Assembly: GCA_036785375.1 (NCBI GenBank)
Contig: JAWMAR010001015.1
Location: 310,001-374,000 of the forward strand
Origin: Leucoraja ocellata
Lineage: Eukaryota
DNA: 64,000 bases
Direction: 5' to 3'
The notes under the pieces are model-generated. The model was not told the origin of the DNA. It saw only the letters and a program-made list of their open reading frames with translations, and searched no databases. Positions 3,953 through 44,029 of this stretch are shown here, piece by piece. Numbering within the stretch: position 1 is the first letter of the stretch; each line of letters opens with the position of its first letter. The position numbers and the translations under genes were made by a program.

Positions 3953-4221
3953 TTATTTGTTATTTGCACGATTTGTTATTTATTGAAGTGTTTTTTCACT
4001 TCCCCCGTTATGCACTATGTTTACATATTCACATATTCTGTTGTGCTGCAGCAAGTAAGAATTTCCTTGTCCCGTGTGGTACATATGACAATAAAACACT
4101 CTTGACTCTTCTTGACTCACTCACACACTGCAACACTTGTCCTTCAGTGCTAAACTTGCCTGGTCCTTATTTTGTGATGGGGTAAAAGATGTGATGATTA
4201 GAGTGAATCCCAGCACCGTAC

Positions 4222-4539
4222 CTTGAAAGCTTTTCACTTCCCGGCTGATACTGGTGTTCGAGGGGGGATGAGACACTGTACAGCCGAAGACTGAGCCTTT
4301 CTTCCAATCCTCTGAACTCACATTCAGGAAGTGGCTGGCACTGAAAGTCCCCCCCTGCTCCAGAGCAGTCGGTGTAGCGCTGGTAGTGGAGGAGATTGGG
4401 GCTCCGTCTTTCTCCCAAGTGACGTTAATGAGGTCCGGGTAGAAACCAGAGAGCACACACTCGAGGATGGCTGTGTGGCTGCGCTTGGTCTCTTGGTGAG
4501 CTGGAGGCAGCAGTCTGACCTTGGGTCTTTTTGTTTCAA
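4222..4539 (-). CDS. IgW: IgW CH4-like constant exon, downstream copy B (intact)
   Basis: 318-nt phase-1/phase-1 exon, ttccag acceptor and G|GTACGG donor; C1-set domain VETKRPKVRLLPP...LECVLSGFYPDLINVTW...FGCTVSHPPSNT; paralogous to 23689-24006. Confidence 0.9.
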
Positions 4540-4581
4540 CTGGAACAGAGGAGCAAAGTAGATGTGAGTCCCTCTTCCTCA

Positions 4582-4926
4582 AGGGCCTGCCCACTTACAC
4601 AACTTTTTTGGCGACTGCCGGCACCCGTCATAGGTCGTTACAGGTCGCCGAAAATTTGAAACAGGTCATGTTGAAAATCCAGCGGTGACCAGCACAAGGT
4701 ACGACTCTTTGGGCGACTACACACGACGATGCAGGCTTCACACCACGACATATCGCCAGGGTGTCACTTGTATGGTCGTGAGTAGTCTCCTCAGTCGCCC
4801 AAAGAGTCGTAGCATCTTTCTGGTCACCACTGGATTTTCAACATGTTGAAACTTTTTGGCGACCTACAACGACCTACGACGGGTGTCGGCCGTCACCGAA
4901 AAAGTTGCGTAAGTGGGAAAGGCCCT
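4582..4926. mobile_element. PIF/Harbinger-type MITE in CH3-CH4 intron of copy B
   Basis: TIRs AGGGCCTG(T)CCCACTTA / TAAGTGGGAAAGGCCCT, 3-bp TSD TCA, largely palindromic interior. Confidence 0.8.
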
Positions 4927-4972
4927 TCATGGTAACTAATGTTGGCCGTATCATTGTCGATCTCTCGCCCAC

Positions 4973-5275
4973 CTTTGGCACTTTCTGTCCGTGCTGACAC
5001 TGGTGAGGATGATGGAGATCGTTGGGCAGAGCACACAACCTCCACCCCGCTGGTCCACTCCTCCACACTGCTCCGGAGTTTACTGCTCACTCTGTCTTGG
5101 GTACTTTCCCCTCTCGGTTGGTGGGTCACAGCCCCTGTAGTTCTCTCCCTTCCGCTCACTTGCCAGTAGACTTGGACCTGGCTCAGATCAGCGCCCATTA
5201 CCACGCACACCACAGTAGCGGTCTTGTTGATCCAAATCTCTTCAGTAGAGGGGTTTTGGATAAAGACAGACAATT
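4973..5275 (-). CDS. IgW: IgW CH3-like constant exon, downstream copy B (intact)
   Basis: 303-nt phase-1/phase-1 exon, ctgcag acceptor and G|GTGGGC donor; LSVFIQNPSTEEIWINKTATVVC...W...EEWTSGVEVVC; paralogous to 24551-24853. Confidence 0.9.
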
Positions 5276-5399
5276 CTGCAGATGAGAAATAGGAAGCTTA
5301 CAAACCGGACAAGGTCTGGTGTTGTCGTCACCGATCAACTGGACTCTGACAACTTGCATTCATTTTCCAGACTCACTTTATTGACGTGTGCATAAGGAA

Positions 5400-6150
5400 C
5401 AACCTCTCTCTCAATGTCTGCTAAACTAAAGAGCTGATCATGGACTACAGGAGACAGCAGGGGAGTGGACACCTCCCCATCCATATCGGTGATGTTGACA
5501 TTGAAAGGGTCAGCAGTTTCAAGTTCCTCAGTGTGTACATCAGTGAGGACCTCTCTTGGACACTGCACACGGACACAATAACTAAGAAAGCCCGCCAGCG
5601 GCTCTTTCTCCTGAGAATACTGAGGTAGTTTGGCATGAATGCCAGCATCCTCACAAACTTCCACAGATGCACCATCGAGAGCCTGCTGACGGGTTGCATC
5701 ACAGTCTGGTACGGGAACTGTTCTGCCCACAGCCGCAAATCACTACAGAGAGTGGAGAAGGCGGCACAGTACATCACTGGCAACTGTCTCCTGGCCATTC
5801 AGGACATTTTCCACTGGAGAGTGGTGCCTGCTGCACAGCATCGTCAAGGACCACAGCCACCCAGCACACAGACTGTTCTCCTTGTTACCGTCAGGCAGAT
5901 GATACAGGGGCATGGCTGCAAGTACCACCTGACTTAAGAGCAGATTTTACAAACAGGCCATCAGGCTAAATACTATATTATTATTTGGTATTTACACTAT
6001 GTTTGTTATTTATTGAAATGTTTCTTTTTTTCCCTTCCCCCGTTATGCACTATGTTTATATATTCACATATTCTGTTGTGCTGCAGCAAGTAAGAATTTT
6101 ATTGTCCCGTCCGGGATATATGACAATAAAACACTTTTGATTCTTCTTGA
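5400..6150 (+). mobile_element. Rex1/Babar-type LINE 3' fragment
   Basis: IERVSSFKFL..ISEDLSWT.HTD.ITKKARQRLFLLR and FHRCTIESLLTGCITVWYG match the C-terminus of ORF 39727-42057; 3' tail with CTTGA repeats. The same tail recurs at about 3953-4118. Confidence 0.85.
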
Positions 6151-6282
6151 CCCTAGTCTAGGCTTTGTGGTCATCCCTCACTCACACACTGCAACACTTG
6201 TCCTTCAGTGCTAAACTTGTCTGGACCCTATTTTGTGACGGGGTAAAAGATCTGATGATTAGAGTGAATCCCAGCACCGTAC

Positions 6283-6601
6283 CTTGAAAGCTTTTCACTT
6301 CCCGGCTGATACTGGTGTTCGAGGGGGGATGAGACACTATACAGCCGAAGACTGAGCCTTTCTTCCAATCATCTGAACTCACATTCAGGAAGTGGCTGGC
6401 ACTGAAAGTCCCCCCCCTGCTCCAGAGCAGTCGGTGTAGCACTGGTGGTGGAGGAGACTGGGGCTCCGTCTTTCTCCCAAGTGACGTTTATGAGGTCCGG
6501 GTAGAAACCAGAGAGCACACACTCGAGGATGGCTGTGTGGCTGCGCTTGGTCTCTTGGTGAGCTGGAGGCAGCAGTCTGACCTTGGGTCTTTTTGTTTCA
6601 A
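6283..6601 (-). pseudogene. IgW: IgW CH4-like exon, downstream copy A, +1 frameshift
   Basis: 319 nt versus 318 in copy B; G8 run (C8 at 6410-6417) instead of G7; ORF track splits the domain across two frames. Confidence 0.85.
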
Positions 6602-6643
6602 CTGGAACAGAGGAGCAAAGTAGATGTGAAACCCTCTTCCTCA

Positions 6644-6992
6644 AGGGCCTGTCCCACTTACACAACTTTTTTGGCGACTGCCGGCACCCGTGATAGCTCG
6701 TTACAGGTCGCCGAAAAATGTAAACATGTTGAAAATCCAGCGGTGACCAGCACAAGGTATGACTATTTGACTCAAGGTATGACTACTCACGACCATACTG
6801 GCTTCACCCCGCGACATGTCACCAGGTTGTCGCCTGCATGGGCGTGAGTAGCCTCCTCAGTCGCCCAAAGAGTCGTAAAGTCTTTCAGGTTGCCACTGAA
6901 TTTTCAAAATGTTGAAACTTTTTGGCGACCTACAATGACCTATGACGGGTGCCGGCCGTCACCGAAAAAGTTGCGTAAGTGGGAAAGGCCCT
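6644..6992. mobile_element. PIF/Harbinger-type MITE in CH3-CH4 intron of copy A
   Basis: Same TIRs, same TCA TSD and same insertion site as 4582-4926. Confidence 0.8.
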
Positions 6993-7038
6993 TCATGGTA
7001 ACTAATGTTGGCCGTATCATTGCCGATATCTCGCCCAA

Positions 7039-7341
7039 CTTTGGCACTTTCTGTCCGTGCTGACACTGGTGAGGATGATGGAGATCGTTGGGCAGAGCAC
7101 ACAACCTCCACCCCGCTGGTCCACTCCTCCACACTGCTCCGGAGTTTACTGCTCACTCTGTCTTGGGTCCTTTCCACTCTCGGTTGGTGGGTCACAGCCC
7201 CTGTAGTTCTCTCCCTTCCGCTCACTTGCCAGTAGACTTGGACCTGGCTCAGATCAGCGCCCATTACCACGCACACCACAGTAGCGGTCTTGTTGATCCA
7301 AATCTCTTCAGTGGAGGGGTTTTGGATAAAGACAGACAATT
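7039..7341 (-). pseudogene. IgW: IgW CH3-like exon, downstream copy A, splice donor mutated
   Basis: Open 303-nt exon about 99% identical to 4973-5275, but the donor reads G|TTGGGC instead of G|GTGGGC. Confidence 0.85.
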
Positions 7342-7613
7342 CTGCAGATGAGAAATAGGAAGCTTACAAACCGGACAAGGTCTGGTGTTGTCGTCACCGA
7401 TCAACTGGACTCTGACGACTTGCATTCATTTTCCAGACTCACTTTATTGACGTGTGCATAAGGAGAGCAGCACAGTCCCACTTACCTGCTGCTCTGAAAT
7501 TCCATTCAGCATTTATACATAGTTTGACCCTTGAAATTATGCGCACACTCTAATTTCTTATAATTGAACACAATACATTTTCCACAACACTTATACAAAT
7601 ACATTAACACTAA

Positions 7614-11841: not shown

Positions 11842-14800
11842 TCATACTTGTAATAGGTCCAGAAACATAGACCACGTCTTTTGGAATTGGTCTGCTTTAC
11901 CTGCTAGGAGGAATCTCATCTCTTCCAGATGTAATGTTTCAAACATATTTGATATCCACATTTTTATTGTTGGTGTCGACGCATTTTTCCAGAATTTAAG
12001 TATAAGCTTTTTTCCCATTATTAGCCCGTAATTAAATAAATTCTTCTGAAACACGTTTAATTCAGGGTTACCTTCCGATATTCCGAAGATAATCCATTCT
12101 GGTTTTGGTACCAGTTTTATTTTGATCAATTTTGAAAAAATATCAAATATTTCATACCAGAATTTTTGGATTTTTGTACAAAAAACAAAAGAGTGCGCTA
12201 TGGTAGCTTCTTGACACAGGCATTTATCACAGATTGGTGAAACATTAGGGAAGATTTTATTTAATTTAGTTTTTGAATAATATAATCTATATAATGTTTT
12301 AAATTGGATGAGCGTATGTCGTACGTTGATCGAACATTTATGCACCTATATAACCATATAACCATATAACAATTACAGCACGGAAACAGGCCATCTCGGC
12401 CCTACAAGTCCATGCCGAACAAATTTTTTTCCCCTTAGTCCCACCTGCCTGCACTCGTACCATAACGCTCCATTCCCTTCTCATCCATATGCCTATCCAA
12501 TTTATTTTTAAATGATACCAATGAACCTGCCTCCACCACTTCCACTGGGAGCTCATTCCACACCGCCACCACTCTCTGCGTAAAGAAGTTCCCCCTCATA
12601 TTACCCCTAAACCTCTGTCCCTTAATTCTGAAGTCATGTCCTCTTGTTTGAATCTTCCCTATTCTCAAAGGGAAAAGCTTGTCCACATCAACTCTGTCTA
12701 TCCCTCTCATCATTTTAAAGACCTCTATCAGGTCCCCCCTTAACCTTCTGCGCTCCAGAGAATAAAGACCTAACTTATTCAACCTATCTCTGTAACTTAG
12801 TTGTTGAAACCCAGGCAATATTCTAGTAAATCTCCTCTGTACTCTCTCTATTTTGTTGACATCCTTCCTATAATTTGGCGACCAAAATTGTACCCCATAC
12901 TCCAGATTTGGTCTCACCAATGCCTTGTACAATTTTAACATTACATCCCAGCTTCTATACTCAATGCTCTGATTTATAAAGGCTAGCATACCAAAAGCTT
13001 TCTTTACCACCCTATCTATATGAGATTCCACCTTCAAGGAACTATGCACGGTTATACCCAGATCCCTCTGTTCAACTGTATTCTTCAATTCCCTACCATT
13101 TACCATGTACCTGTAGTAAATGATTATCCCAGGTCTCTTTTGAGATTTTTATAGCTAATTCTTGTTCCCAATCTTTTCTAATTCCATCTGTTGTGGGTAT
13201 TTCTATGTTTAAAATGATATTATATAGGTACGATATTAAATTAGCTGATTCCGCCTTGGTCTTCATTGCTTCATCCAATAAGTCGGAAGGCATATTATGA
13301 TAGTCTTTTGTGTGTTTTTTCAGATAATCACAAATTTGAAGATATTTAAAATATTGGTTATTTTTCAAATTATATTTCAGTTGTAGTTGTTGAAATGATA
13401 GTAAATTCCCCAATTCATACAGATCTTCGAGCGTTTTGATTCCCATTCTTTCCCATTGTATAAATGATTTGTCTATGATTGATGGTTTAAACAATGGATT
13501 ATTGACTATTGGTATTAAAAGAGATAGGTTTCTTAATTTTAAATTCTGTTTTATTTGTTTCCATGTTCTTATTGTGTTATGTATAATTGGATTTTTATTA
13601 TAATTTTTATTATTCAAATTTATTGGTGAGAGGATGGTCGCTCCTATATTACTCGGGGAGCAGTCCCCTTTTTCCATTACCATCCAGTCCGCCTGCTGTG
13701 CAGAATTGTCCAGCAGGTGAATCATATTTTTAATATTTACTGCCCAATTATAATACATAAAATTAGGGAGCGCTAGACCCCCCAGCTCTTTTCGTTTATT
13801 AAGGTGTGCTATTTGTATTCTATGGGATTTATAATCCCATATAAAATTTGTAATGTCTGAGTCCAATTTTTTGAAAAACTTTTTTGGGAGATATATAGGT
13901 ATTGATTGAAATAGGTATAGAATTTGTGGTAAGAAAATCATTTTAATAGCATTTATTCTGCCTATTAAGGACATCGGAAGTGTTTTCCAGAATTTAATCA
14001 GATTATTCAATTTCTTGAGTAAGGGATTATAATTGGCTTTAAACATATCCTGGTAATTTCTAATAATTTCAATTCCCAAATATTTGAATTTTTCTGTAGC
14101 TATTTTAAAGGGAAATTTCCGAAGATGTGTTGAGTCTTTTGGTTTTATCGACATAATTTCACTTTTGTTCCAATTTATTCTATATCCCGAAAAGGATCCA
14201 AAGTCTTCAATTAAATTTAATATGTTTGGTATACTAATTTGTGGTTTTGTGATGTACAGTAGTACATCATCGGCATATAGGGATATTTTATTCTTTGAGT
14301 ATTTTGTATTATAACCATAAATATCCGGATGTGTTCTTATTTTTTCAGCAAGGGGTTCAATTACCAAAGCAAATAACAGCGGTGATAATGAGCATCCTTG
14401 TCTATTGCCCCTTGATAGTTCAAATTTCGAGGATAAAATATTATTAGTTAATATTCTAGCCGTAGGTTTGTTATATAATAGTTTTATCCATGCGATAAAG
14501 TTTTCTCCCAATTGGAATTTTTGCAATACTTTAATCATATAATCCCATTCTACTTGATCAAACGCTTTTTCTGCGTCCAGTGAGATAATAGATGACTCTT
14601 GGTCGTGAGATTTTTGTGAGTGCATTATGTTAAGCAAACGTCTCAAATTATTGAATGAGTGTCTCTTAGGTATAAATCCTGTTTGATCTCCATTTATTAA
14701 TCTACTAACGTACCTGCTTAGTCTACTGGCTAGTGTTTTCGCTATTATTTTTTGATCCGTATTTAACAAAGCAATAGCTCTATATGAGCCTGGTTCTTCT

Positions 14801-16406
14801 ATGTTTTTATCTTTTTTAAGTATTAATGTGATCGTTGATTCTGCTAAAGTTTCGGGTAAGCTTTGCTCTTTAAAAGCGTATGTATACATTTTCTGTAATC
14901 GTGGGTAACTATATCGTAAAAGGCTTTATAGAATTCACTACTGAATCCGTCTGGTCCTGGTGTTTTGCCGTTCTTTAGTGTTTTTATTGTGTCTTCTATC
15001 TCCTTAGAAGTAATTGTTGCTCCCAGTTCCTCTTGTTCCCTCAATTCTAATTTTGGGAGGTTACAATTTTCCAGAAATTCTGAAACTTTATTATTATCTA
15101 TTGACGTTTTAGATGTATATAGATTTTCGTAAAATTGAGCAAATCTTTTATTGATATCCTTGGGTAATGTTAATAATTCCCCACTATCTGATTTAATCTT
15201 TAGTATTGCATTCTCTTTTTCCCGTTTTTTCAATTGGCGTGCTAAAAGTTTGTGTGGTTTGTCCCCGAATTCAAAGTGTTCTTGTTTTGTAACTTGGAAT
15301 AATGTTATAACTTTCTCTGACAATAATTTATTCAGCTTGAATTTCAATAATAGGATTTTATTATGTTTATCCATAGTTGGATCTTTAGCATTATCTGTAT
15401 CTAATTGTTTTATTTGTTCTTCTAAATGTCTTTGTTCTTTCTTATTCTTTTTATTTTGATAAGCTTGAAATGAAATAATGACTCCTCTAATAAATGCTTT
15501 AAAGGATTCCCATAATAGCGTGGGGGATATATCTGGTGTATCATTTATCTCAAAGAATAAGTCCATCTGTTTTTTTAGATATATACTCCCTTGTGGGTCT
15601 TTTAAAAGTTGCGAATTAAACCTCCAGAACGATTTATTCATAGACATTCCTTCTAATTTTAAAACAAAGGTTAAAGGAGAGTGATCTGAAATCGCATTAA
15701 TGTGGTATTTAGGATTCATAGTGTGTGTAATTAATTTTGTATCCACAAGAAAATAGTCTATCCGTGAATATGTTTTATGCACCGTTGAATAGAACGAGTA
15801 GTCCCTTCCCGTCGGATTTGCAATCCTCCCTACATCTGCTATATTTGTGTTTTCCATATATGTATGTAAGAGTTCACTGGTTTTAGATTTCATATTACCT
15901 TTTTGTTTTTGCATCGATTTATCTAAATAAGGGTCTAAAACACAGTTGAAGTCTCCTCCAATTATAACATTTTGATAATTAAATTCTGCAATTATATTCA
16001 GAATTTTATTAAAAAATTGAGGGTTATCAAAGTTGGGCGCATATATATTTACCAGCGTAATTGGCGTATTATTGATCTCTCCTGCTACTATAAGATATCT
16101 CCCTTCCTTATCTGAAATAGTATTCTTTGATTTAAATGGAATTCCTTTACGAATAATAATTGCAGTACCTCTGGATTTAGAAGTGAATGAAGAGTGAAAT
16201 GTTTGGCCTATCCAGTTAGCCCTCAGTCTCGTCTGATCTTGATGTTTAAGATGCGTTTCCTGTAGGAACGAAATGTCCGTGTTGTATGCTTTCAACTGAG
16301 CTAGTATCTTGCCCCTTTTAATAGGTTCATTAATACCCCTTATATTCCAACTACATAGTGTGACTCCTCCCATTTTCCTTTGATTGTCGTCATACATTTT
16401 TACCAA
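11842..16406 (-). pseudogene. L1 ORF2 (APE endonuclease, reverse transcriptase, C-terminal CCHC), disrupted
   Basis: SWNIRG, LQETH, GGDFN and SDH endonuclease motifs; RQGCSLSP and LYADD RT motifs; CDKC...H...C. Frameshift near 14900 and CR1 insertion at 12348-13104. Confidence 0.95.
12348..13104 (-). mobile_element. 5'-truncated CR1 LINE nested in L1 ORF2
   Basis: ORF 12435-13106 has CR1 C-terminal motifs (LYKALVRPNLEY, RRRLRGDLIEVFK, RVVAVWNELP); (ATATGGTT)n tail; 8-bp TSD ATGCACCT / ATGTACCT. Confidence 0.92.
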
Positions 16407-17333
16407 TTTTAATGACCTTACTTACTATGGTGCATCCATACCTCAGGACTCTGGTTATTTTGGGAGCATTTATATTATAGACTTTCTTGGTAGTTCCCCT
16501 CCGCGATTGTCCTTGAAAAAAAAACACATAAATGTGACATATTGTGATTAAAACAAAAAGTATATAGAATAAATGTACGGTGTCTGGGTTTCCGACACCG
16601 TAGTGAGTGGCCCACTCGTCTGTGGGATACGACATCAATATTGCTTCCGGCGTAGCTGTTATGAGGTTAGCCCCACTGACTTTATTACTCATAACCTAGG
16701 GGGTAGGTACCGTTTCCAAATCAGTTCTATTTCACCCCATTGCAGTATATATATATATATATGTTTCATTCCGACTTATCAAATCTAATCAAGTATTCAG
16801 TTACATATATTCCTCTCTCTTTATCTCTTAACTATTTGTAATTGGTTTTAGTATTGTTAAAAGTGAGCTGTTCGTTGAAAGGGTTAAACAGAGTCAGGCT
16901 CCTGGAATTAAGCCAGGTGCCTGAGTCTCTTCCCCTCCCCACTCGAGCTGCGGAACCTGTGAGATTACCATGTTGTCTGCGTTATAACACATTTTTATCA
17001 ATATCAGTTTATGTATTAGTATTGTTAGTTATTAATTACTAATAATTCTCTATACTTTGTAAGAGTCTGTAAGAGTATGTAAGCCATGTGATGTTTTTCA
17101 GTCTCTCTCAGCTTCAGCAGAACTGCATTCTTCTGTTATCAATGTTTCCTGGTTTGAGCATCGCATGTCCTTGAATTAAATTCGAGAGAAGATTATAATG
17201 TCTAGACATGTCTCGTGGAAAATCTGTTGCGAATAATCATTTTTAAAGCTTGGTGTTATTCACTTTTTTCAATTTTCTACTAATATTCTTGTTGGGGGAA
17301 TAAGCACATTAATTAGTTCATGACGTCTGGTGA

Positions 17334-18365
17334 TCAATCTTCTTTTGTTGCTGCCTTAGCCACGATTTCTTGAGCGTATTTAAGGGATTCTACCGGGTTA
17401 GTGAATGTTTTTGAGATTCCCTTGAAAGTGATACGCATCCTAGCCGGATAAAACACTCCACATATGACGCCCTTGACACCGTAGAGAGCTTCTCTGGTCT
17501 GTGAGAACTTTCTTCTCTTTTGCACAATCTCATAAGGGTAGTCCCGTAGAAGTTTAATAGAATCATTTCCATACATCATCTTCTCTCCGTGTTTAATTTT
17601 TTTCATCAGCGCTTCCACTGTTGGGATATCCCGAAGTTTGACTATGATCTGTCGTGGGTAGGCTTGTTCTCCTTGAAATCTTGGTTTAAATCTAGGTAGT
17701 CGATGTGCTTCTTCAATTACTGGTGCCTCAGGTAAATTGAGTACATGTTTGATTAAATTGGCAGTGAACTCACGAGCGTTTTCCCCCTCAGCTCCCTCTT
17801 TCACTCCACGTATTCGTATATTTTGACGTCTTGAGCGAGCTTCTAGTTCAACACATTTATCAGATACTTTTGTAAATTGGCTCTTGAGGCTGTCTAATTC
17901 TAACTTCATTGCCTCCATTTCTCCAGCCATCTCTTCCACAACAGCTTCCAAATCTTTCACTGCAATTGCATTTGCCGAAATAGTTTCATGCACAGCCTCA
18001 AACATCTTTGTGGACTCTTCTGCCACCTTAGTAATTTTCCCCGTTAGCTCTTCTTGCACATCATCAACTCTTTTTTGCAGAGCACCAATGCCAGCGAGTA
18101 TTTTTTCATTACCAGCATTAATGGATTGTATGTTTTCCATCAAGTTTAAATTTCCAGCTTTCACATCATTTTTCAAATCTCTTACCGAGTTCTTTAATTC
18201 CTCCATTTCAGTTTTCTCTTTTGTGATCAACTCAGTCTTAGATCGTGTAGCCATTCCAGAATCCACTCCAGAGGTTAGTTTTGCAGTTTCTTTATGTTCC
18301 TGAGTCTTCAGCAGGTGTTTTGTCACTTTCCTCTGTGGGCTCTGACCTGGAGATGTATTTTTCAT
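17334..18365 (-). CDS. L1 ORF1 protein (coiled coil plus RRM/CTD), 343 aa, intact
   Basis: LEARSRRQNIRIRGVKEG, AHRL, PRQIIVKL, RDYP and YPARMRI motifs typical of L1 ORF1p. Confidence 0.93.
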   Translation of the reverse strand: MKNTSPGQSPQRKVTKHLLKTQEHKETAKLTSGVDSGMATRSKTELITKEKTEMEELKNSVRDLKNDVKAGNLNLMENIQSINAGNEKILAGIGALQKRVDDVQEELTGKITKVAEESTKMFEAVHETISANAIAVKDLEAVVEEMAGEMEAMKLELDSLKSQFTKVSDKCVELEARSRRQNIRIRGVKEGAEGENAREFTANLIKHVLNLPEAPVIEEAHRLPRFKPRFQGEQAYPRQIIVKLRDIPTVEALMKKIKHGEKMMYGNDSIKLLRDYPYEIVQKRRKFSQTREALYGVKGVICGVFYPARMRITFKGISKTFTNPVESLKYAQEIVAKAATKED

Positions 18366-19318: not shown

Positions 19319-19704
19319 TTACACACAAGATTTAAAGCTGTCAGTCAGAACAAGTGAGACATTGACCAGGGTGGGTTTGCTGTGAGATTTATTGATGCTT
19401 CTGAATAGACTGGTTGTGATGGATCCATGTCCCACAACACAGGAGAAGGTGGTGCCACAGTTCCAGTCCTCTGGAGAAACCTTCAACTGACTGGTCATGG
19501 TGTTCCACCCATTCCTGGTGTCCTTGGTCACGGGCTGGTTCACGATCCCTGTCTTCAGAAGGGTGTCGTTGGCCATCCAGGCCACATAGATGTCTGCAGG
19601 AGAGAATTTGGTGACCAGGCACGTCAAGGTGGCCGTCTTATCCGTCTCCACCTCATCCAATGAAGGGGGGAGGAGGTAGACTTGAGGACGTCTCTCAACT
19701 CCAT
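19319..19704 (-). CDS. IgW: IgW terminal constant exon (CH6) with secretory tailpiece
   Basis: ttcccag acceptor; GVERRPQVYLLPPSLDEV...TLTCLVTKFSPADIYVAW...FSCVVGH; tailpiece KPTLVNVSLVLTDSFKSCV* with NVS sequon and penultimate Cys. Confidence 0.95.
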
Positions 19705-22369: not shown

Positions 22370-22690
22370 CTGTCAGCTTCTTCAAAGATCTGCTCTCCGG
22401 TGTTGGCAAACTCTTGTCCTCCACAACACAGGTGTACAGAGCCCCACTCTCCCACTCTGCAGCGGGGACCGTCAGTCCGCTGGTGATGGTGTCTGTACCT
22501 CCGATCCTCTCTACACCACGAGTTGTCACCCCGTCTTCTCTCTTCATTTCATTCACTTGCCAGGTGACCCTGAATCCCTCTAAATCACCGTGAACCACCT
22601 TACACAGAATGGTGGCTGTCTTGTTGATCCAGATCTCTTCGAAGGAAGGTTTGCTTAAAGTGACCGAGGGGCGGGTATCTGAACATTCAT
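22370..22690 (-). CDS. IgW: IgW CH5 exon
   Basis: 321-nt phase-1/phase-1 exon, tcccag acceptor and G|GTACGT donor; ECSDTRPSVTLSKPSFEEIWINKTATILC...VTW...EWESGALYTCVV. Confidence 0.93.
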
Positions 22691-23688: not shown

Positions 23689-24006
23689 CTTGGATGTTCT
23701 TCACATCCTTCGTGATGATGGTGTTGGAGGCGCGATGATACACTGTACAATTGAAACGTGAGCCTGACTTCCAATCCTCTGTACTCATGGTCAGGAAGTG
23801 GCTGGCACTGAAAGTGCCCCCCTGCTCCAGAGCAGTTGGTGCAGCGCTGGTGTTGTTGGAGATCAGGGCATCGTCTTTACTCCAAGTGACGTTGATGAGG
23901 TCTGGGTAGAATCCAGAGACCACACACTCGAGGGTGACCTTGTGGCTATGCTTGGTCTCTTCGTGTGTTTGAAGCAGCAGTCTGACTTCAGGTTTATTTG
24001 GCTCAA
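23689..24006 (-). CDS. IgW: IgW CH4 exon
   Basis: 318-nt phase-1/phase-1 exon, ttccag acceptor and G|GTAGGC donor; TLECVVSGFYPDLINVTW...DWKSGSRFNCTVYH. Confidence 0.93.
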
Positions 24007-24040: not shown

Positions 24041-24510
24041 ATAGAGACATAGAGTGATACAGTGTAGAAACAGGCCCTTCAGCCCAACTTGCCCACCCCG
24101 GCCAACATGTCCCAGCTACATTAGTCTCTCCCGCCGTGTTTGGTCAATGTCCCTCAAAACCTGTCCCTGTCTGTTTTTTTAATGTTAGGATAGTCCCTGC
24201 CTCAACTACCTCCTCTGGCAGCTTGTTTCATACATCCACAACCCTTTGCGTGAAGAAGTTACCCCTCAGATTCCTATTAAATCTTTCCCCCTTCACCTTA
24301 AACCTATGTCCTCTGGTACTCAATTCACCTACTCTGGGCAAGAGACTCTGTGCATCTATCCAATCTATTTCTCTCATGATTTTATACACCTCAATAAGAT
24401 ATTCCCTCATCCTCCGACACTCTAAGGAATAGAGTCCCAGCCCACTCAACCTCTCCCTATAGCTCTCTAGCCCTGGCAACATCCTTGTAAATCCTCTCTG
24501 TACCCTCTCT
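24041..24510 (-). mobile_element. CR1 LINE 3' fragment in CH3-CH4 intron
   Basis: ORF 24228-24521 GLYSLECRRMR...TRGHRFKV...FFTQRVV. Confidence 0.85.
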
Positions 24511-24550
24511 CTCTCTGTCACACCGATTTAATCACTGATCTGTTGCCCAC

Positions 24551-24853
24551 CTTTGTTATGGTTGGTCCGCGCTGACACTGGTGAGGATGATGAAGAATGT
24601 TGGGCGAAGCACACAAACTCCACCCCGCTGGTCCACTCCTCGACGCTGGTCCGGAGTTCACTGGTCACAGGGTTTTGGGTGCCTTCATGGCTCGGTGTAC
24701 GGGTCACAACTCCTTCACTTCTCTCCTTTCCTCCCACCTTCCAGGTGAGATGGACCTGGCTCGGATCACTACAGATCACTGAACACACCAGCGTAGCGGT
24801 CTTGTTGATCCAAATCTCTTTCATGCCAGGATTTTGAATGAAGACGGCCAATG
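24551..24853 (-). CDS. IgW: IgW CH3 exon
   Basis: 303-nt phase-1/phase-1 exon, ccacag acceptor and G|GTGGGC donor; LAVFIQNPGMKEIWINKTATLVC...LTW...EEWTSGVEFVC. Confidence 0.93.
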
Positions 24854-24909
24854 CTGTGGATCAGAAATGGAAAAGTTCAGAATTTTAGTTGAGACTCATC
24901 TGTTACTAA

Positions 24910-25241
24910 AGGGCCTGTCCCACTTACGCAACTTTTTCAGCGACTGCCGGCCACCGTCATAGGTCGTTGCAGGTTGCCCAAAATTGTCAACATGTTGAAA
25001 ATCCAGCGGCGACCAGAACAAGGTACGAACCATTGGGCGACTACGCATGACCATACAGGCTTCACCTATGTCGGCAGGGTGTCACCTGTATGGTCGTGAG
25101 TATTCTCCTCAGTTGCCCAAAGAGCCGTAGCACCGTTCTGGTCGTAGCTGAATTTTCAACGTTAACATTTTTCAGTGACCTGCTGCGACTATGACAGGTG
25201 CTGGCAATCGCAGAATAAATTGCGTAAGTGGCTCAGGCTCT
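24910..25241. mobile_element. PIF/Harbinger-type MITE
   Basis: TIR AGGGCCTGTCCCACTTACG, flanked by TAA / TTA; same family as 4582-4926. Confidence 0.78.
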
Positions 25242-27203
25242 TTATGGAAAGGCAGGGCAGAAATCCAAACAGGTGTCTCATAAAAGAACTTTAAGATGTT
25301 TATGTCATCACATAAAAGACTGATCAATGGCTGATCAAACTATACACTGGCTAGATTTATTGCAAACAGAATAGTAGAAAAACTCGTGTTAAATAGCAGG
25401 TTGAGTGTTTTGACTGAAAAAAACAGAACAAAGGATCCGTCAACTGGGATTTGACTCACTTTCCCATCACCATGATCAGCTGGTACATTACAGGGGCACA
25501 ATTTGATATGTGCTTTACTTGGAACTCCTGCTGCATCGATTAGTAATACTAAGCAACATGAATGAGAAAAGCAACTTTTTTCCCTGTAGGCCAAGCCTGG
25601 GATTCCCTCAGTTTAAGAATGTCACATGCTGATATCACAGCCTTACTCTGACCATGTGTCTCACCATCTCTGAAACCTTCACCACAAACACAACCTTCAT
25701 TCTTCCAACTCAGGGCACTCGTAAGCCTGCACTCCTTTCACCTTTGTACCACTTGCTGTGTCATGTTGCAGTGTTGCCCACAAACACCAAAACTCACTCA
25801 GCCATAGACTAGTGTCAGTTTAGTGTGACTGTGCTCCAGTGAAGACTTTGAGGCGTTTCAGTAATTGATAGAAATGATCAGAAATAAATTAGTGGCTGAC
25901 TCTCCAGCGACAGCAGAGCAAATCATAAATGGTTAGAAGTATCAAGGTCCCTCTCCTGCTGCAGATTGGGATGAAATTCTGCATTAGATGTATTTTCCCA
26001 TTTCACATCAGAATCATTGGGCGAGGAAGAGAATGATTTATTCATTCATTGCCCCTGACTGACCTGCACTGCCACTTGTCTTCTGAAGAGCATCATGAGT
26101 CTAATTGCACTCAGCTCACTCTTGTGTGTGCACTGTTTACACACTTAGTCACTTGGACCACATGAGCTGATTTTGCTCTCAAACACTTATTGTGGAGTGT
26201 GATTAGGTTTGTGTCAGAATTGAAACTTTCAATGAGCCTGGAGATCAAAGCCTTCAGCTGCGTAGAAAGCAGAGTCTGTCTGACAGGAGACATAACATTT
26301 GTCAATGTAAGATGTTGTCTATTTCACAACCCCTCCTTCTTTAAGCAAAATGGTGAGCAAATTCCTTTCAAAAATAGTTATGTGCATGGTATTAGTGTGG
26401 ATGACAATTGTTGCAGTGTCATCAGAAATTTATAAGTCTAGTTTAACAGTGTGCAATGTTTTTGCTCTGTGAATCTTGTTTTAATCAGCAATGTGATATT
26501 GTTAAACATGTGTGTTTGCAAGATGCTCAATCCCGTCCCATATCAGTGACAGTCGTGTAGTTCCACCATCGTGGTGTCGGGGGGAAACCGCCTCCTATGA
26601 AACCTGGCAGAGTATGGATACTCTCCATCCTGTCAAATGCTGGTATCTTCCACAAGAGACATTTTGTCTTGCTCAACCTTAGATGATTATAACCAAACAC
26701 GTCCATTCCTTGCAACATTCCTTGCATTCCCTGAGTTTCTCCTTTGGACTGAGGTCTGTGTCCGGGAGGTGGGTTAATAAATCTGTGGCAATTTGTGCTA
26801 ACTACGGTTTTCACCCAAAGCCAGTATAGGACAGGAGACCGGTTAGAGCCCTAGATCTTGCCTCACCAGTTTGCATTTATTATAGGGTCATCCTATTTTT
26901 TACTGAGCCACTTTGACATTTCACACCGTTTACCTTAAACATCTCCTGCCTTTCGATCTCTGGGTGGTCCTTGCTGACTAGAGCCTGAGCATGAATAAAT
27001 CTGGCCAGTGGCACTGGGATGTGAAGCAACAATGTCTGCAAATGAATGAATATACAGGCAACTAGTGGAAGGGAGAGGGAGACAGCTTGAATTGGGTATT
27101 TTCCCCACTCTGGTACACTTTGATCCCAGTAGATACCAGGGGTTGGATTTGAATCTTATAAATGGGTAGTAATAATAGAATGACAAATTCCATACGCAGC
27201 CAA

Positions 27204-27331
27204 CTACTTTATTTCACACTTTCCTGCCCAACAATGATACTGCTGGGTAGAACCATCTGAGAACGACACATTGAGATTAGTCTGGTAGATGAACTTCGGC
27301 AGACACTTCGAACAGCCGGGACATTTTCGAC
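27204..27331 (-). CDS. IgW: IgW short-form Cys-rich secretory tail exon
   Basis: Not in the ORF track. tttccag acceptor, phase 1; (G)RKCPGCSKCLPKFIYQTNLNVSFSDGSTQQYHCWAGKCEIK*, which I recognise from memory as the skate IgX short-form tail. AATAAA at 27213-27208 and 26881-26876. Confidence 0.92.
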
Positions 27332-27565
27332 CTGGAAATGGAAGATTAATTGATTTAAATGTTAAGAGATTTTTACCTCCCGTGTTGAGGAAAGAGGAGA
27401 TTCACATATTCCCAGTCTGTGTCCTCAGTATTTATCAGCATAAGATTATGCCGACCACGATAAACTGCTTCACTTTGTCCAGGATCAAACAACACTTTAA
27501 AGAGTGTGGAGATGAGTTCAAAAATAATCCAGGCACTGACATTTCAATGAAAGGGAAAGGGCAAT

Positions 27566-28079
27566 CTACAGGTGAGTTGGACAGTTTGGGTGAGTGGGCA
27601 GATGCATGGCAGATACAGTTTAATGTGGATAAATGTGAGGTAGCAAAAATAGGAAGGCAGATTACTATCCTAATTGGGTCAAATTGGGAAATGGGGAAGT
27701 ACAATGGGATCTCGGGGTCCTTGTTCATCAGTCAATGAAAATAAGCATGCAGATACTGCAGGGAGTGAAGAAAGCGAATGGCATGTTGGCCTTTTAACAA
27801 GAGGAGTTGAGTATAGGAGCAAAGAAGTCCTTCTGCAGTTGTACAGGGCCCTAGTAGAGACCACACCTGGAGTATTGTGTGCAGTTTTGGTCCCCTAATG
27901 CGTGGAAGGACATTCTTGCTATTGAGGGAGTGCAGCGTAGGTTCATCAGGTTAATTCCCTGATTGGCGGGACTGTCATGAGCTGAGAGAATGGAGCGGCT
28001 GGGCTTGTATACCCTGGAGTTTAGAAGGATGAGAGGATATCTTATTGAAACATATAAGATTATTAAGGGTTTGGACACT
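27566..28079 (+). mobile_element. CR1 fragment truncated at both ends, at the position expected for CH2
   Basis: CR1 RT C-terminal remnant ending abruptly at KIIKGLDTL with no 3' UTR or tail. Confidence 0.88.
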
Positions 28080-28126
28080 TTAGTTCTATCATCAGCTTTA
28101 AATGGACAACAAAATCTCACACTAAC

Positions 28127-28432
28127 CTTGAGGCTTCGGGAACGCCGTTATTATCATATTGTCCGGCTTGGATCCTGCCATGCAGTAGTAGGTTTTCCTG
28201 TTCCAATCTGCTACAGAGACTCGCAGCAAGCTGCTCATTGTGTACTTGTTGTTTTGTCCCAACACTGGTGGGTACTTTGTTATTCCATTGTTGATGACCC
28301 CACTGCTGGTGGACCATGTCTGACTGATGACCTCAGGCAGGTAGTCCTTGACCAGACAGAGGATGCTGATCTCTTGGCCAGATTCCGTGTTGCACGAAGA
28401 GGTGATGTGGACTGAAGGCAAAACCACATCCT
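28127..28432 (-). CDS. IgW: IgW CH1 exon
   Basis: 306-nt phase-1/phase-1 exon, tttcag acceptor and G|GTTAGT donor; EDVVLPSVHITSSCNTESGQEISILCLVKDYLPEVISQTW...DWNRKTYYC, matching skate IgX CH1 as I recall it. Confidence 0.95.
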
Positions 28433-29479
28433 CTGAAATGGAAATAAATTAACAGTTGGTCCTATAGTAAATGGATTATTACCAGCGCATGCAACAGGTT
28501 CATGCTGATTGCTGAGTGAATGCAGGTGATTCAGGCTGAGAGAAGGCCAGGCAGAGCAGACAAATAGTTCCTTTCCCAGTCCCTTTCACACCGTGCATGA
28601 CCAAGCAGTGAAATGCTGATCTCTCACTGGCGAAGCAACATCTGCCAACCAGAGGGACAAACCGGCCTGTGCTCTGGGTGATGTGTCCCAGGTCAGGAAC
28701 CACATGGTATGGTGCCAGATGGACCATATCTACAACCACCGGGCCAAATGGTGCTGGATCTGGCCTGTTGTGGAACTCCTTCAATGCTGGGCCTCGGGGA
28801 GTGTTGTACAACTAAGGGATCTTGGAGAACAGCTACACAGATCCCAGGAAGCGTTGTCACAGGTAAATAGGTTGGTAAACAAAGCTATTCATGAATCAGG
28901 GAATTGATATACAGTAACCCCTCGTTTTAATGGACCACTTTATAACAGATTTTGGATGTAGCGGACGGACCTGCCGACACCACCCTTGCACGCATGGTCC
29001 TTGGAGTCACCAACATACTGCACCTTGGAAGCAGCAGCTGGTGGGAGGAGAGGGTGCCCCATGGTGAGCATGCACCTTGTCAGTGGCCTGAAGAAAGCAC
29101 TGCCAGTCAGAAGCTACATTGTGAGCCACAACCACAGCCGTGTCACCGGACCGTGCGGTGGATGAAGAAGGACTCGCTGGTGCAGAGCAGAGACAATGGC
29201 GCCTGGTTTTAAGGTGAAATAACACAAAGTACTTCAGTAACCCAGCAGACTGAATCAGTCTGAAGAAGATTCCCCACCTCACCTATTGATGTCCTCCAGA
29301 GATGATCCCTGACCAGTTGAATTACTCCAGCACTTTGTGTCTTTTTGTGTATTAACCAGTATCTGCATTCTTTGTTTCAACTACATACACGGGTAATACC
29401 TTTCTTGTTTAAAGCTAACATTCGGCAATAATGGATACTATCCCCCCCACACCATGGTCCGTTATAATGAGGGTTTACT

Positions 29480-30417: not shown

Positions 30418-30648
30418 AGCTGGGGTGAGGAGCTGGGTGCTGGGGTGAGGAGCTGGGTGCTGGGGGGAGGAGCTGGGTGCTGGGGGGAGGAGCTGGGTGC
30501 TGGGGGGAGGAGCTGGGTGCTGGGGGGAGGAGCTGGGGGGAGGAGCTGGGTGCTGGGGGGAGGAGCTGGGTGCTGGGGGGAGGAGCTGGGTGCTGGGGGG
30601 AGGAGCTGGGTGCTGGGGGGAGGAGCTGGGTGCTGGGGGGAGGAGCTG
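30418..30648 (+). repeat. G-rich 20-bp tandem array (TGGGGGGAGGAGCTGGGTGC)n, about 11.5 units, in J-CH1 intron
   Basis: Read directly; 13 AGCT motifs; one shortened unit at about 30531-30543. Confidence 0.95.
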
Positions 30649-33420: not shown

Positions 33421-33468
33421 CTGAAGTCACTGTCAGCGAGGTTCCTGCACCCCAGTAGTCAAGATAAT
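33421..33468 (-). CDS. IgW: IgW JH gene segment
   Basis: YLDYWGAGTSLTVTS with WGXG motif, followed by G|GTAAG donor at 33420. Confidence 0.95.
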
Positions 33469-33507
33469 CACACTGATTCATTTTCCCACTCAGTCAGTAC
33501 AATAACT
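33469..33507 (+). other. 23-RSS of JH
   Basis: CACACTG, 23-nt spacer, ACAATAACT. Confidence 0.92.
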
Positions 33508-33833: not shown

Positions 33834-33899
33834 AGTTTTTGTTCAGCTCTCCACCGCCGTGGGCCAGTATACACGGTGATTCACCGCCGCTCACAAACT
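33834..33899 (-). other. IgW: D2 segment (33862-33871, TATACTGGCC) flanked by two 12-RSS
   Basis: 5' side CACGGTG-12-TCACAAACT (33872-33899); 3' side CACGGCG-12-ACAAAAACT (33861-33834). Confidence 0.87.
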
Positions 33900-34226: not shown

Positions 34227-34305
34227 GGTTTTTGTATTGAGGAAGTCCCATCTCTCACACTGTGCCACCCATATAGTCACAGTGATTCACCGCCGTACAA
34301 TAACC
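34227..34305 (-). other. IgW: D1 segment (34265-34277, ACTATATGGGTGG) with 5' 12-RSS and 3' 22-RSS
   Basis: CACAGTG-12-ACAATAACC (34278-34305); CACAGTG-22-ACAAAAACC (34264-34227). Confidence 0.93.
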
Positions 34306-34513: not shown

Positions 34514-34552
34514 GGTTGTTGTACCGGCCCGGCCCCGCTTCCTCTCACTGTG
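34514..34552 (-). other. 23-RSS of VH
   Basis: CACAGTG, 23-nt spacer, ACAACAACC. Confidence 0.93.
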
Positions 34553-34850
34553 TCTCTCGCACAGTAATAGGTGGCCGTGTCGGCCAGACTCAGGCGGGTC
34601 ATTTGGAGATAGACATTGCTGTTGTCCTTGGAAACCTCGAATCGGCCGCTGAAGGCAGGCGCGTATAGTTTGTTACCATTATTCTGCATCACCGCCACCC
34701 ACTCCAGCCCTTTCCCGGGGACTTGTTTCACCCAGCTCACGTGGTAGCTGCTGAGGCTGAACCCGCTGGTTACACAGGTCAGTTTGAGGGACTCTCCGGG
34801 CTTTGCCGCCTCGGTCGGTTTCTGATTCAGCACGACCGCGGATCGAACGC
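34553..34850 (-). CDS. IgW: IgW VH exon (germline, unrearranged)
   Basis: ttgacag acceptor; VVLNQ...[32 protein letters not shown]...DTATYYCAR, open frame, abuts RSS. Confidence 0.97.
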
Positions 34851-34980: not shown

Positions 34981-35026
34981 CTGGCAGACAGGACAGAAGG
35001 AGACAGAGATAAGCAGCGACCCCCAT
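34981..35026 (-). CDS. IgW: IgW leader exon
   Basis: 46-nt ATG exon [15 protein letters not shown](G), phase-1 donor G|GTGGGT, 130-nt intron to V exon. Confidence 0.93.
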
Positions 35027-38888: not shown

Positions 38889-39070
38889 NNNNNNNNNNNN
38901 NNNNNNNNNNNNNNNNNNNNNNNNNNNNNNNNNNNNNNNNNNNNNNNNNNNNNNNNNNNNNNNNNNNNNNNNNNNNNNNNNNNNNNNNNNNNNNNNNNNN
39001 NNNNNNNNNNNNNNNNNNNNNNNNNNNNNNNNNNNNNNNNNNNNNNNNNNNNNNNNNNNNNNNNNNNNNN
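38889..39070. other. Assembly gap (182 N)
   Basis: Run of N inside a degenerate GTGTACAGATATCCC...GAGAGAG repeat. Confidence 1.
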
Positions 39071-39574: not shown

Positions 39575-42230
39575 TTCAGATTCAATTTAATTGTCATTGT
39601 CAGTGTACAGTACAGAGACAACGAAATGCATTTAGCATCTCCCTTGAAGAGCGACATAGCAAACGATTTGAATACATAATAATAAGTGTCCGGGGGGGGG
39701 GGGGGGGGGGGGGTGGCGATTGGCAGTCACCGAGGTACGTTGTTTAGTAGAGTGACAGCCGCCGGAAAGAAGCTGTTCCTCGACCTGCTGGTTCGGCAAC
39801 GGAGAGACCTGTAGCGCCTCCCGGATGGTAGGAGGGTAAACAGTCCATGGTTGGGGTGAGAGCAGTCCTTGGCGATGCTGAGCGCCCTCCGCAGACAGCG
39901 CTTGCTTTGGACAGACTCAATGGAGGGGAGCGAGGAACCGGTGATGCGTTGGGCAATTTTCACCACCCTCTGCAATGCCTTCCGGTCGGAGATAGAGCAG
40001 TTGCCATACCATACTGTGATGCAGTTGGTAAGGATGCTCTCGATGGTGCAGCGGTAGAAGTTCACCAGGATCTGAGGAGACAGATGGACCTTCTTCAGTC
40101 TCCTCAGGAAGAAGAGACGCTGATGAGCCTTCTTGATCAGAGTAGAGGTATTGTGGGTCCAAGAGAGGTCATCGGAGATGTTGACTCCCAGGAACCTGAA
40201 GCTAGAAACACGTTCCACCTCCGTCCCGTTAATGTGGATGGGGGTGTGCGTGCCGCCTCTGGACTTCCTGAAGTCTACAATGAGCTCCTTGGTCTTCTTG
40301 GAGTTAAGGGCCAGGTTGTTGTCAGCGCACCATGCTGCTAAGTGCTGGACCTCCTCCCTGTAGGCCAGCTCATCGTTGTTGCTGATGAGGCCAATCACCG
40401 TTGTATCATCTGCATACTTGATGATGGTGTTAGTACCATGTACAGGTGTGCAGTCATAGGTGAAGAGGGAGTAGAGGAGGGGGCTCAGCACACAGCCCTG
40501 AGGAACGCCGGTGTTCAGGGTGAGGGTTGAAGAGGTGTGCTTGTCTAACCTCACAGACTGGGGTCTGTTGGTTAGAAAGTCCAGTATCCAGTTGCAGAGG
40601 GAGGGGTCGATGCCCAGGTTACCGAGTTTGGTGATCAGTTTTGATGGAATAATGGTGTTGAATGCTGAGCTGTAATCGATGAACAGCATTCTTACATAAG
40701 TGTCTCTGTTGTCGAGGTGGGAGAGGGCGGAGTGAAGTGCCGTTGAGATGGCATCCTCCGTACTCCTGTTCTTGCGGTAGGCAAACTGATAGGGATCCAG
40801 TGTGGGGGGTAGGCAGCTTTTGAGGTGTGCCAGGACCAGCCTCTCGAAGCACTTGGTGATAATGGGGGTAAGTGCAACTGGGCGGAAGTCGTTGAGGCTT
40901 GCCGCAGTGGAGTGTTTTGGCACGTGCACGATGGAGGTGGCTTTAAGGCAAGTGGGGACAACTGCTTGGGCAAGTGACAGGTTGAAGATGTCAGTCCAGA
41001 CGTCTGTCAGCTGCGCAGCACAGGCCCTGAGCACGCGCCCGGGGATGCCGTCAGGGCCAGCAGCTTTACGTGCATTAGTCCTACTCAGTGCCACGTACAC
41101 GTCGTAGGGGGTGAGTGTGAGGGGTTGGTGATCGGCAGGTAGCACAGCCTTGATGGCTGTCTCTAGATTGTCCCTGTCGAAGCGGCCATAGAAGTGATTA
41201 AGCTCCTCAAGGAAGGAGGCGTCGCTGGATGTGGGGGTGATGTTGGAGGGTCTGTAGTCCGTGATGGCCTGGATGCCTTGCCACATGCGTCGGGGGTCGG
41301 AGTTGTTGTTGAAGTGCTCCTCAATCCAGAGCTTATGGCAGTGCTTGGCCTTCCTGATGCCCCTCTTCAGGTTAGCCCTGGATGAACTGTAGGCTCGAGC
41401 ATCGCCTGACCTGAAAGCGGTGTCCCGTGCTTTCAGCAGTAGCCTGACCTCGCTGTTCATCCATGGCTTCTGATTCGGGTATATGGTCACCTGTTTGAGG
41501 GAGGTGACACTATTGATGGTGGAGTTTATAAAGTCCAGAACAGAGGATGTGTAGGAATCAATGTCCGTGTGAGAGCCAAGGGTGGCCTGGGCTGCAAACG
41601 CCTTCCAGTCAGTGTTTCCAAAACACTGCTGAAGTGTGAAGTCCGCTTCCTCTGACCAGACTTTAACTGTCCTCACAGTTGGTTTAACCCGTCTGATGAG
41701 TGGGGAGTACTTAGGGAGCAGGAACAATGAGACGTGATCAGACTGACCAAGGTGGGGGAGGGGGATGGCTTTGTAAGCTTCAGCCATGTTGGTGTAGACT
41801 TTGTCCAGTGTCTTGTCTACTCTAGTGGGGAAGGATACATGTTGGTGGAATTTGGGGAGTACAGTCTTCAGGTTGCAGTGATTGAAGTCACCCGCAACAA
41901 TGAAGGCTGCCTCGGGGTTGTGCGTCTGTTGTTTGCTAATGGCAGTATGCAGCTCTTTCATTGCAAGCTTGGCATTAGCATCAGGGGGGATATAGGCTGC
42001 AGTCACAACAGTGGAGGTGAACTCTCTGGGCAGATAGAACGGTCTGCATCTAACCAAGAGGAACTCAAGGTTAGCTGAGCAGTGACTCTCGATGATGATG
42101 GAGTCCGTGCACCATGCTTTGTTTACATAAATGCACAGACCCCCCCCTCTGGTCTTACCAGAGTCTGATGTCCTGTCCGCTCGGAGTAAATGACGCCCCG
42201 ATAGCTGGATGGCGCTGTCAGGAACGTCAG
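39575..42230 (-). mobile_element. Rex1/Babar-type LINE with long intact pol ORF (39727-42057), 5'-truncated
   Basis: RPFYLPREF, AGDFNH, SDH endonuclease motifs; GVPQGCVLSP and KYADD RT motifs; 776 aa without stops. Confidence 0.93.
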
Positions 42231-44029
42231 ATAAAACTTATTAGCAGAATCTTCTGCCTCCACTAACCTTGGAAGAATCAATGTGAACCAGAATATCTTG
42301 GGTGGAAGGAGGATTATATATTGGTGAGGAATTTTCTCTCGCAGAGATTAAAACTGAGTTTCACTCCTGGACAGGTGTCCCCTCACTGCTGTTAGAAAAC
42401 CCTTTGATCTGTGTCAGCTATGGGTCTTTTGATCCATGTTTTCAAGAACAGGAAGTGCAACACTAAGAGAAGCAGTCACACTGAGAAACAGGAGGCTGCC
42501 CAGTCAAGGGAGCAGCCAAGTGCTCAATGGCAGGAAATCACAGGGAGAGACGTTCTGTGGAGGATCTGTTCCTACTTCAGAATGGTCTCACAACAGTTCT
42601 AAATCATGCAGCTCCAACAGACATAGAGCAACAAACACAGCTCAATCCAACTCCCATGGCAGCTAAACAGATGTCCTGTTACCCTTTCAACCTCACTTTT
42701 ACCATTGCCATTTGCCCTTTTACAGGAACTTGGGACAGTTAATGGAGATGTCTTGAGGACAGTGTGTATTATGGACATGGAGGTGGTCGATGTCCTCAGG
42801 CGTATGACAGTAGATATGAAGATTGTACAAAACATTGATGTTTGGAATGCATTACCAGGGGACGTTGTGGAAGCAGATACGACAGCAATGATTAAAAGGC
42901 ATTTAGAGATAGATTAGACATTCAGTATTTTCTTTCTCTCGGGGTATGAATGTTTTGGTTCCACTTGTATTCCAAAGTATGTTTTGCCTCACATCAGTGG
43001 TAGGAATGTAATTGGAGAGGATTCTTTGGGATAGGATTTACTACCATTTGGAAGCCAATGAGCTAGTAAGGGACCATCAGCATGGCTTTGTACGCCACAG
43101 ATCATGTCTTACTAACTTGATTGATTTTGTTGAGGAGGTGACAAAGGTGATCGATGAAGGTAGGGCAGTGGATGTTGTCCATATGGACCATAGTAAGGCA
43201 TTTGAGAAAGTTCTCCATGGTTGGTTGTCCAAGAAGGTCAAAATGCACAGCCTTCAGAGTGATTTTGTCGTCTGGGTCAATACCTGTTTACTGATAGAAG
43301 ACAGAGGCTTGTGGTGAAGGGCATTATTCAGAGTGGAAGTCTGTGACCAGCTGAGCTCTGCAGTGATCTGCGGACAGTGAGCAAGGATGTTAAAGTATAG
43401 ATCTGCGAGGAGGATGCTATGAGGCTGCAGGGTGACTTGGATTGGTTGGGTGAGTGGGCAGATGCACTCTAAAGTAAAGACGATATAGATCAGCTCAGAA
43501 ATGGGCAAAGAAATGGAAAATGAGGTTTAATCCGACTAAATGCTGTTGTTTTACTAAAAATGACCGATATTCTCCACACTTGCATGAAGCACATCTCTGT
43601 CTTCAGACTCAGTCCTATTGGTCAGTTATCTTTTCAGTAACGTAAGAATTGTTTATAGGTGTTGGTCTTTAAGTCAGGGACATATTTCCATATGTCAAGC
43701 AGCCTGCTTGTTCTTTTTAGCAAGTCTGTTCCCTGTGGGATTCCCCCTGTTCAGATTAAGACAATCTGCCATCTCCAACAGGAAATCTGAGGTGAAGGAA
43801 ATAGTGCCCACATCACTGTCCAGTTTCACACACCCATCAACAGTCAAAATATGAAACATGTTTCTGGTAAATCAACAGCTGCATGCAGAGATTGTGTTCA
43901 AATTTGTCCCATGCATAGAGGATCAGTAAAAAGGTTCTTCAGCCCTACAGCCCATTCCCACTCTCTGCTGATCTGTGTTTGAACTCCATTTATCCACCTT
44001 GTATAAATGGAGTCCTTTAATCACCAAAG

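Follow-up and report, generated by a model that had tools for sequence, protein, structure and literature searches.

The window examined here, the whole 64-kb stretch of 64,000 nucleotides (nt) from Leucoraja ocellata (contig JAWMAR010001015.1, positions 310,001 to 374,000), carries on its minus strand an immunoglobulin heavy-chain cluster of the IgW class in which the exon for the second constant domain, CH2, is missing. By its sequence, the cluster is an IgW variant and not a canonical member with CH2 after CH1. Genomic loss of CH2 is very probable, and the direct transcript in which CH1 is joined to CH3 is also well supported. We favor, with more reserve, the reading that this is a real and transcribed CH2-less IgW giving V-CH1-CH3-CH4-CH5-CH6 (V, variable domain), and the product is somewhat more probably than otherwise a working five-domain antibody.

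Six-frame translation, Pfam and a scan for recombination signal sequences (RSS) gave the following order on the minus strand: leader, V, two diversity segments (D), a joining segment (J), CH1, a 795-nt intron, a Cys-rich tail, CH3 to CH6, and two extra domain pairs. The constant domains are orthologous to IgW CH1 and CH3-CH6. Together with the Cys tail they are 91-99% identical to P0002 and P0008 among the known skate IgW/IgX chains, short (P0008, little skate cDNA AAA49546.1) and long (P0002, XP_055522228.1; P0006), which have a like V-D-D-J-C layout. Unlike this cluster, P0002, P0006, and P0008 all have CH2, and CH2 follows CH1 in all 22 homologues, most of which are automatic gene models. 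At the expected place of CH2 lies the 795-nt intron (27332..28126, minus strand), bounded by the end of CH1 at 28127 and the start of the tail at 27331; both this short separation and the absence of CH2, first proposed in an initial annotation made from the sequence, were borne out. The tblastn search that the annotation had suggested was run on both strands with CH2 domains cut from 11 of 16 homologues (the other five lacked the cutting motif), and found no CH2 exon in the window, only distant matches on other constant exons. The best identity of the skate CH2s was 31-34%, on those other exons, vs. 91-99% to little-skate proteins for the neighboring exons. Between J and CH3, nothing significant was found for four skate CH2s (best E = 19 among the matches listed). 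On the grounds of this both-strand search, we also rejected a CH2 moved or inverted to another place in the window.

About two thirds of the intron is a fragment of a CR1 long interspersed nuclear element (LINE) on the plus strand (27566..28078, alternative start 27571), truncated at both ends and 76-87% identical to the five CR1 copies of the window that it matches best. As the initial annotation had noticed, this CR1 lacks its 3' end close to the CH1 donor: it stops 48 nt away (47 with the T at 28079 included), without the last 248 nt, the usual 3' end being reached by 11 of the 16 CR1 fragments in the window. We also rejected the possibility that an insertion had split the CR1, no matching 3' piece being found on the plus strand from 28083 to the V exon. 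A deletion is likely, and is the simplest reading of these sequences; it would have removed CH2, the larger part of the CH1-CH2 intron, and the end of the CR1 on its 3' side. The putative breakpoint lies near 28079-28083. The C-terminal end of CH1 differs from that of P0002 and P0008 and resembles that of the thorny skate IgW model P0009 (XP_032883787.1), so that this end marks the cluster and suggests that the loss was recent. Because P0009, similar in its CH1 end, keeps CH2, the loss probably postdates the divergence of these skates. When metagenomes were scanned with P0008, no related locus came up.

The remaining constant exons, all on the minus strand, would be spliced in frame. CH1 (28127..28432; 306 nt, Pfam C1-set) has three cysteines and agrees with P0002, P0008, and P0009 in 93-94 of 102 residues; it retains its extra N-terminal cysteine, which we take to be the light-chain binding residue. 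The CH1 donor GT lies at 28126-28125 and the tail acceptor AG at 27333-27332. The Cys-rich secretory tail exon of short IgW (27204..27331; 42 amino acids (aa), five cysteines, 40/42 to P0008) has an AATAAA polyadenylation signal at 26881. It is followed by CH3 (24551..24853), CH4 (23689..24006), CH5 (22370..22690), and CH6 with a secretory tailpiece and stop codon (19319..19704), which match P0002 at 98/101, 105/106, 104/107, and 127/128 residues, respectively. CH1, CH3, CH4, and CH5 have AG/GT ends and lengths divisible by three, and every constant exon is in phase 1; because of this common phase the loss of CH2 keeps a 544-residue frame open (CH1-3-4-5-6, 59.9 kDa). CH1 joined to the tail with its five cysteines is also an open frame, so the in-frame splicing foreseen from the exon phases holds for both arrangements.

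The CH1-CH3 splice was sought in public runs, of which 24 were listed, none of them recorded as RNA; four were compared over 24450-28650, all as contigs. In runs X1 and X2 the depth is flat across exons and introns, as in DNA, and the window-type CH1 end is present in both; X2 has, in addition, another CH1-end allele with the changes I to V and P to S (50.5 of 124.4). In X4, the depth of exon contigs is about 1,500-3,900 and that of intron contigs about 37-57. Letters of J (matching the window from 33426 onward) are spliced at the CH1 acceptor as a loose end; from the depth pattern and these letters, X4 is most likely spliced-RNA-like. It contains a joint 24853/28127 with CT..AC ends, the exact CH1 donor and CH3 acceptor, in one contig at a depth of 519.6, which is the PKPQ-ALAVF junction that the initial annotation had put forward for a search. 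The total X4 depth at 28139 and 28154, with window letters, is exactly 519.6, and because this equals the depth of the joint, the joint contig is the sole X4 cover of this CH1 end. As a rough figure, the joint accounts for a third of the CH3-entry depth. X15, which is RNA by guess, has no cover at 28139 and 28154 and no CH1-CH3 joint among those listed. The 5' junction of the CR1 is spanned by the X4 contig 27458-27606 with 0 differences, and the loose ends at 28078 derive from other CR1 copies and are uninformative on the breakpoint.

Several points weigh against a transcribed five-domain IgW. The joint was found in one of the four runs compared, and X4 is of unrecorded kind and given as contigs only, contig depth being a poor measure of expression. 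As the J is common to paralogues, the J-CH1 splice is not assignable to this cluster. At the breakpoint (28078-28083), no spanning piece was found among the 32 pieces listed, and because five of the 16 CR1 fragments in the window are also 3'-truncated (in one case through a split by an insertion), the truncation suggests a deletion and does not prove it. No transmembrane exon was found in the window; one is expected beyond position 1. Protein searches gave none with CH1 followed by CH3, and nothing for CH1-bearing proteins of 55-177 aa, both weak negatives from 90% clusters with few candidates. The exons are 91-99% identical to those of a CH2-bearing paralogue; being so near, their open frames are no proof of selection and may reflect recent origin. 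Finally, the letters within the 24853/28127 joint are marked 'not known', so that a contig containing CH2 needed to be excluded. The value 'both' given for each joint is read-based, as three other rows with a reference microhomology of 1-2, out of 14 same-strand joints, show both=0 (one of them with a listed inserted letter); the 24853/28127 row shows both=2 with a reference of 2. Simulating the direct splice with 31-mers yields 28 letters on the CH3 side, which agrees with the listed side=28. The CH1-CH3 joint is thus most likely direct. Of the V-CH1-CH3-CH4-CH5-CH6 chain predicted by the initial annotation, the CH1-CH3 step has been found in one run, and the rest stands as an open frame.

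The segments upstream of CH1, all on the minus strand, form an unrearranged minilocus with one V, D segments, one J, C exons, and 12/23 signals, as in IgW clusters. The leader exon (34981..35026) has an ATG start and a GT donor, and 16/16 of its residues equal the P0009/P0011 leader; the germline VH exon (34553..34850) is open (Pfam V-set, E 1.4e-14; 90% to the V of P0002) and is followed by a 23-RSS (34514..34552) with a perfect heptamer and one mismatch in the nonamer. D1 (34265-34277) lies between a 12-RSS and a 22-RSS (34227..34305) found by the RSS scan, D2 (33862-33871) has two 12-RSS (33834..33899), the 3' one found by the scan and the 5' one read from the sequence, and J (33421-33468), recognized by scan and translation, has a 23-RSS (33421..33507). 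The recombination signals are V23-12D22-12D12-23J. The RSS heptamers begin with CAC, and V, J, and the six main constant-region exons are all open. The 5' signal of D2 is degenerate, its nonamer being 3/9 off consensus, and was missed by the scan; with this signal and a frameshifted exon in one downstream domain pair, the initial annotation went too far in calling V, D, J, RSS, and other exons intact.

The same features bear on the best surviving alternative, in which the CH2 loss is real and the cluster is a recent neutral duplicate, transcribed as a sterile J-C, germline, or unstable-protein message and yielding no working antibody. The near identity to the paralogue, which would have left little time for decay, speaks for it, as do the frameshifted downstream duplicate exon, the degenerate D2 signal, and the lack of a V-D-J joint assignable to this cluster or of a matching protein on record. 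We nevertheless consider it unlikely, in view of the CAC starts of the heptamers, the open V, J, and six main constant exons, and the joint contig, which has roughly ten times the depth of the X4 intron contigs. Far less probable is an assembly artefact, with CH2 dropped by a misjoin at the CR1 and the X4 joint arising from a normal cluster, by exon skipping or as a contig that contains CH2. The break does fall within a very high-copy repeat, in a family of near-identical clusters; no DNA piece among those listed crosses it, and the joint is marked 'between: not known'. Against this, the window-type CH1 end continues only into CH3 in X4, the values both=2 and side=28 agree with direct splicing, and an assembly error and a dominant skip would both have to have affected one and the same exon of one allele. 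Moreover, a misjoin mediated by the repeat would connect CR1 to CR1, and here CR1 meets unique intron sequence. Equally improbable as the main product is the Fab-like V-CH1-tail chain of the initial annotation, multimerizing through its five tail cysteines: the in-frame CH1-tail junction, the cysteines, and the polyadenylation signal would allow it, and a short IgW ending in this tail is already known (P0008; accessible text of PMC4279169), but it is unsupported because no CH1-tail joint occurs among the 15 of 84 joints listed, the sole X4 contig on this CH1 end leads to CH3, and the X4 tail contig has a paralogue-type (P0008-type) letter at 27280. It may occur as a minor or tissue-specific form.

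Downstream of CH6 on the minus strand, the first extra domain pair (CH3-like, CH4-like; 6283..7341) is frameshifted by +1 within a G run of its second exon, while the second pair (4220..5276) consists of open frames, 92% and 87% identical to P0017, in which, by domain order, such a pair precedes the transmembrane segment. The two pairs are a tandem duplication (3948-5398 vs. 5976-7464; 92% over 1.5 kb). The second exon of the upstream duplicate has 8 G vs. 7 G, and the frameshift may be a homopolymer error or decay. A palindromic repeat resembling a miniature inverted-repeat transposable element is found at 24900-25250, 6634-7001, and 4572-4935, each time at most about 50 nt from a CH3-type exon; it precedes CH3 itself, whereas at the two CH3-like copies it lies on the downstream side. 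The stretch separating CH6 from the extra pairs holds a near full-length L1-type LINE (11845-18365, minus strand), with a first open reading frame (ORF1) of 343 aa and ORF2 in pieces. The J-CH1 intron contains about 12 copies of a 20-nt G-rich tandem repeat (30419-30648) that is superficially switch-region-like. In the tail-CH3 intron several fixed-looking differences from the runs were seen, among the run differences being a 12-nt insertion at 25696 in X1, X2, and X4 alike; such differences may represent collapsed paralogues or another haplotype. The cluster itself is free of gaps, an assembly gap (182 N at 38889-39070) lying 4 kb upstream of the leader, and an 836-aa open frame at 39730-42237 with endonuclease and reverse-transcriptase motifs is by appearance a young LINE.

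The cluster can be compared with several known antibodies. P0002 differs further in having an extra duplicated CH3-CH4 pair before CH5, and the batoid IgW models P0001, P0003, and P0004 (sawfish, ray) have up to seven tandem CH3/CH4-type pairs in 1,200-1,800 aa, some batoid gene models being auto-named 'titin-like'. The nurse shark IgM1gj is likewise an elasmobranch heavy-chain cluster that lost CH2, a loss described in the consulted parts of the literature as convergent with IgG (PMC4279169, PMC5192425). IgM1gj, however, is an IgM with a mu constant region, three C domains, and a germline-joined V-D-J, whereas here five IgW C domains follow separate V, D, D, and J segments with RSS. IgNAR, too, has five C domains, and its last four are homologous to those of IgW, as stated in the accessible sections of PMC4622739. 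The best solved relatives of CH3 are the IgNAR chains 4Q9B and 2MKL, followed by IgM Fc chains; skate CH2 had no specific solved relative in this structure comparison. IgNAR, with its single-domain V and without a light chain, is thought to have lost the IgW CH1; this cluster keeps CH1 and a VH like that of IgW and lacks CH2, a mirror loss. For IgW, the review text available (PMC4279169, PMC5192425, PMC6795676) gives forms of 2, 4, 6, or 8 C domains as well as one without V. According to part of a preprint (bioRxiv 2022.06.22.497154), the truncated isoforms of nurse shark have CH2 as their last domain, and the number of domains varies among W-lineage genes. No description of a CH2-less IgW was found in literature searches, which were restricted to partial texts outside the primary skate and nurse shark papers; because those papers lay beyond this coverage, a prior description is possible.

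Under the preferred reading of a transcribed five-domain IgW, a recent deletion would have taken CH2 together with the 3' end of the intronic CR1, and the phase-1 exons would keep the frame, with CH1 spliced directly to CH3. RAG rearrangement of the V-D-D-J segments and translation would then presumably yield a secreted, light-chain-paired chain with five constant domains. Some indication of its shape may come from IgNAR, of which C1 and C3 dimerize, the C3-C4 linker is disulfide-bridged, and C1 is somewhat similar to IgW CH2 (available text of PMC4622739). By this homology, the lost CH2 might have been the upper pairing module that sets the arm angle; the Fab arms would sit on CH3 via a short Pro-rich linker, pairing would be left to CH4 and the cysteine at the start of CH5, and the outcome would be a shortening at the hinge position like that of IgG and IgM1gj. 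More tentatively, and with somewhat less than even confidence, the cluster could represent a distinct rearranging five-domain IgW subclass, a light-chain-bearing mirror of IgNAR and the second independent IgG-like loss of CH2 among cartilaginous fish. In one or more tissues it would then provide a sizeable part of the long-IgW message, and perhaps a mini-antibody made of a Fab and the cysteine tail as well.

IgW/IgD counts among the two most ancient classes of antibody, and we know of no established function for it. The cluster likely makes a shortened five-domain chain, a form of IgW that we did not find described in the texts covered and whose domain number falls outside the isoform counts that the reviews give in those parts. 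What is known of the plasticity of IgW domain number makes this form less surprising, and the five-domain chain is a predicted protein. As in IgM1gj and IgG, the domain at the hinge position would have been lost once again. A CH2-less cluster and near-identical CH2-bearing clusters in one species would offer a natural comparison for the role of CH2 in arm geometry, proteolysis, and effector binding.
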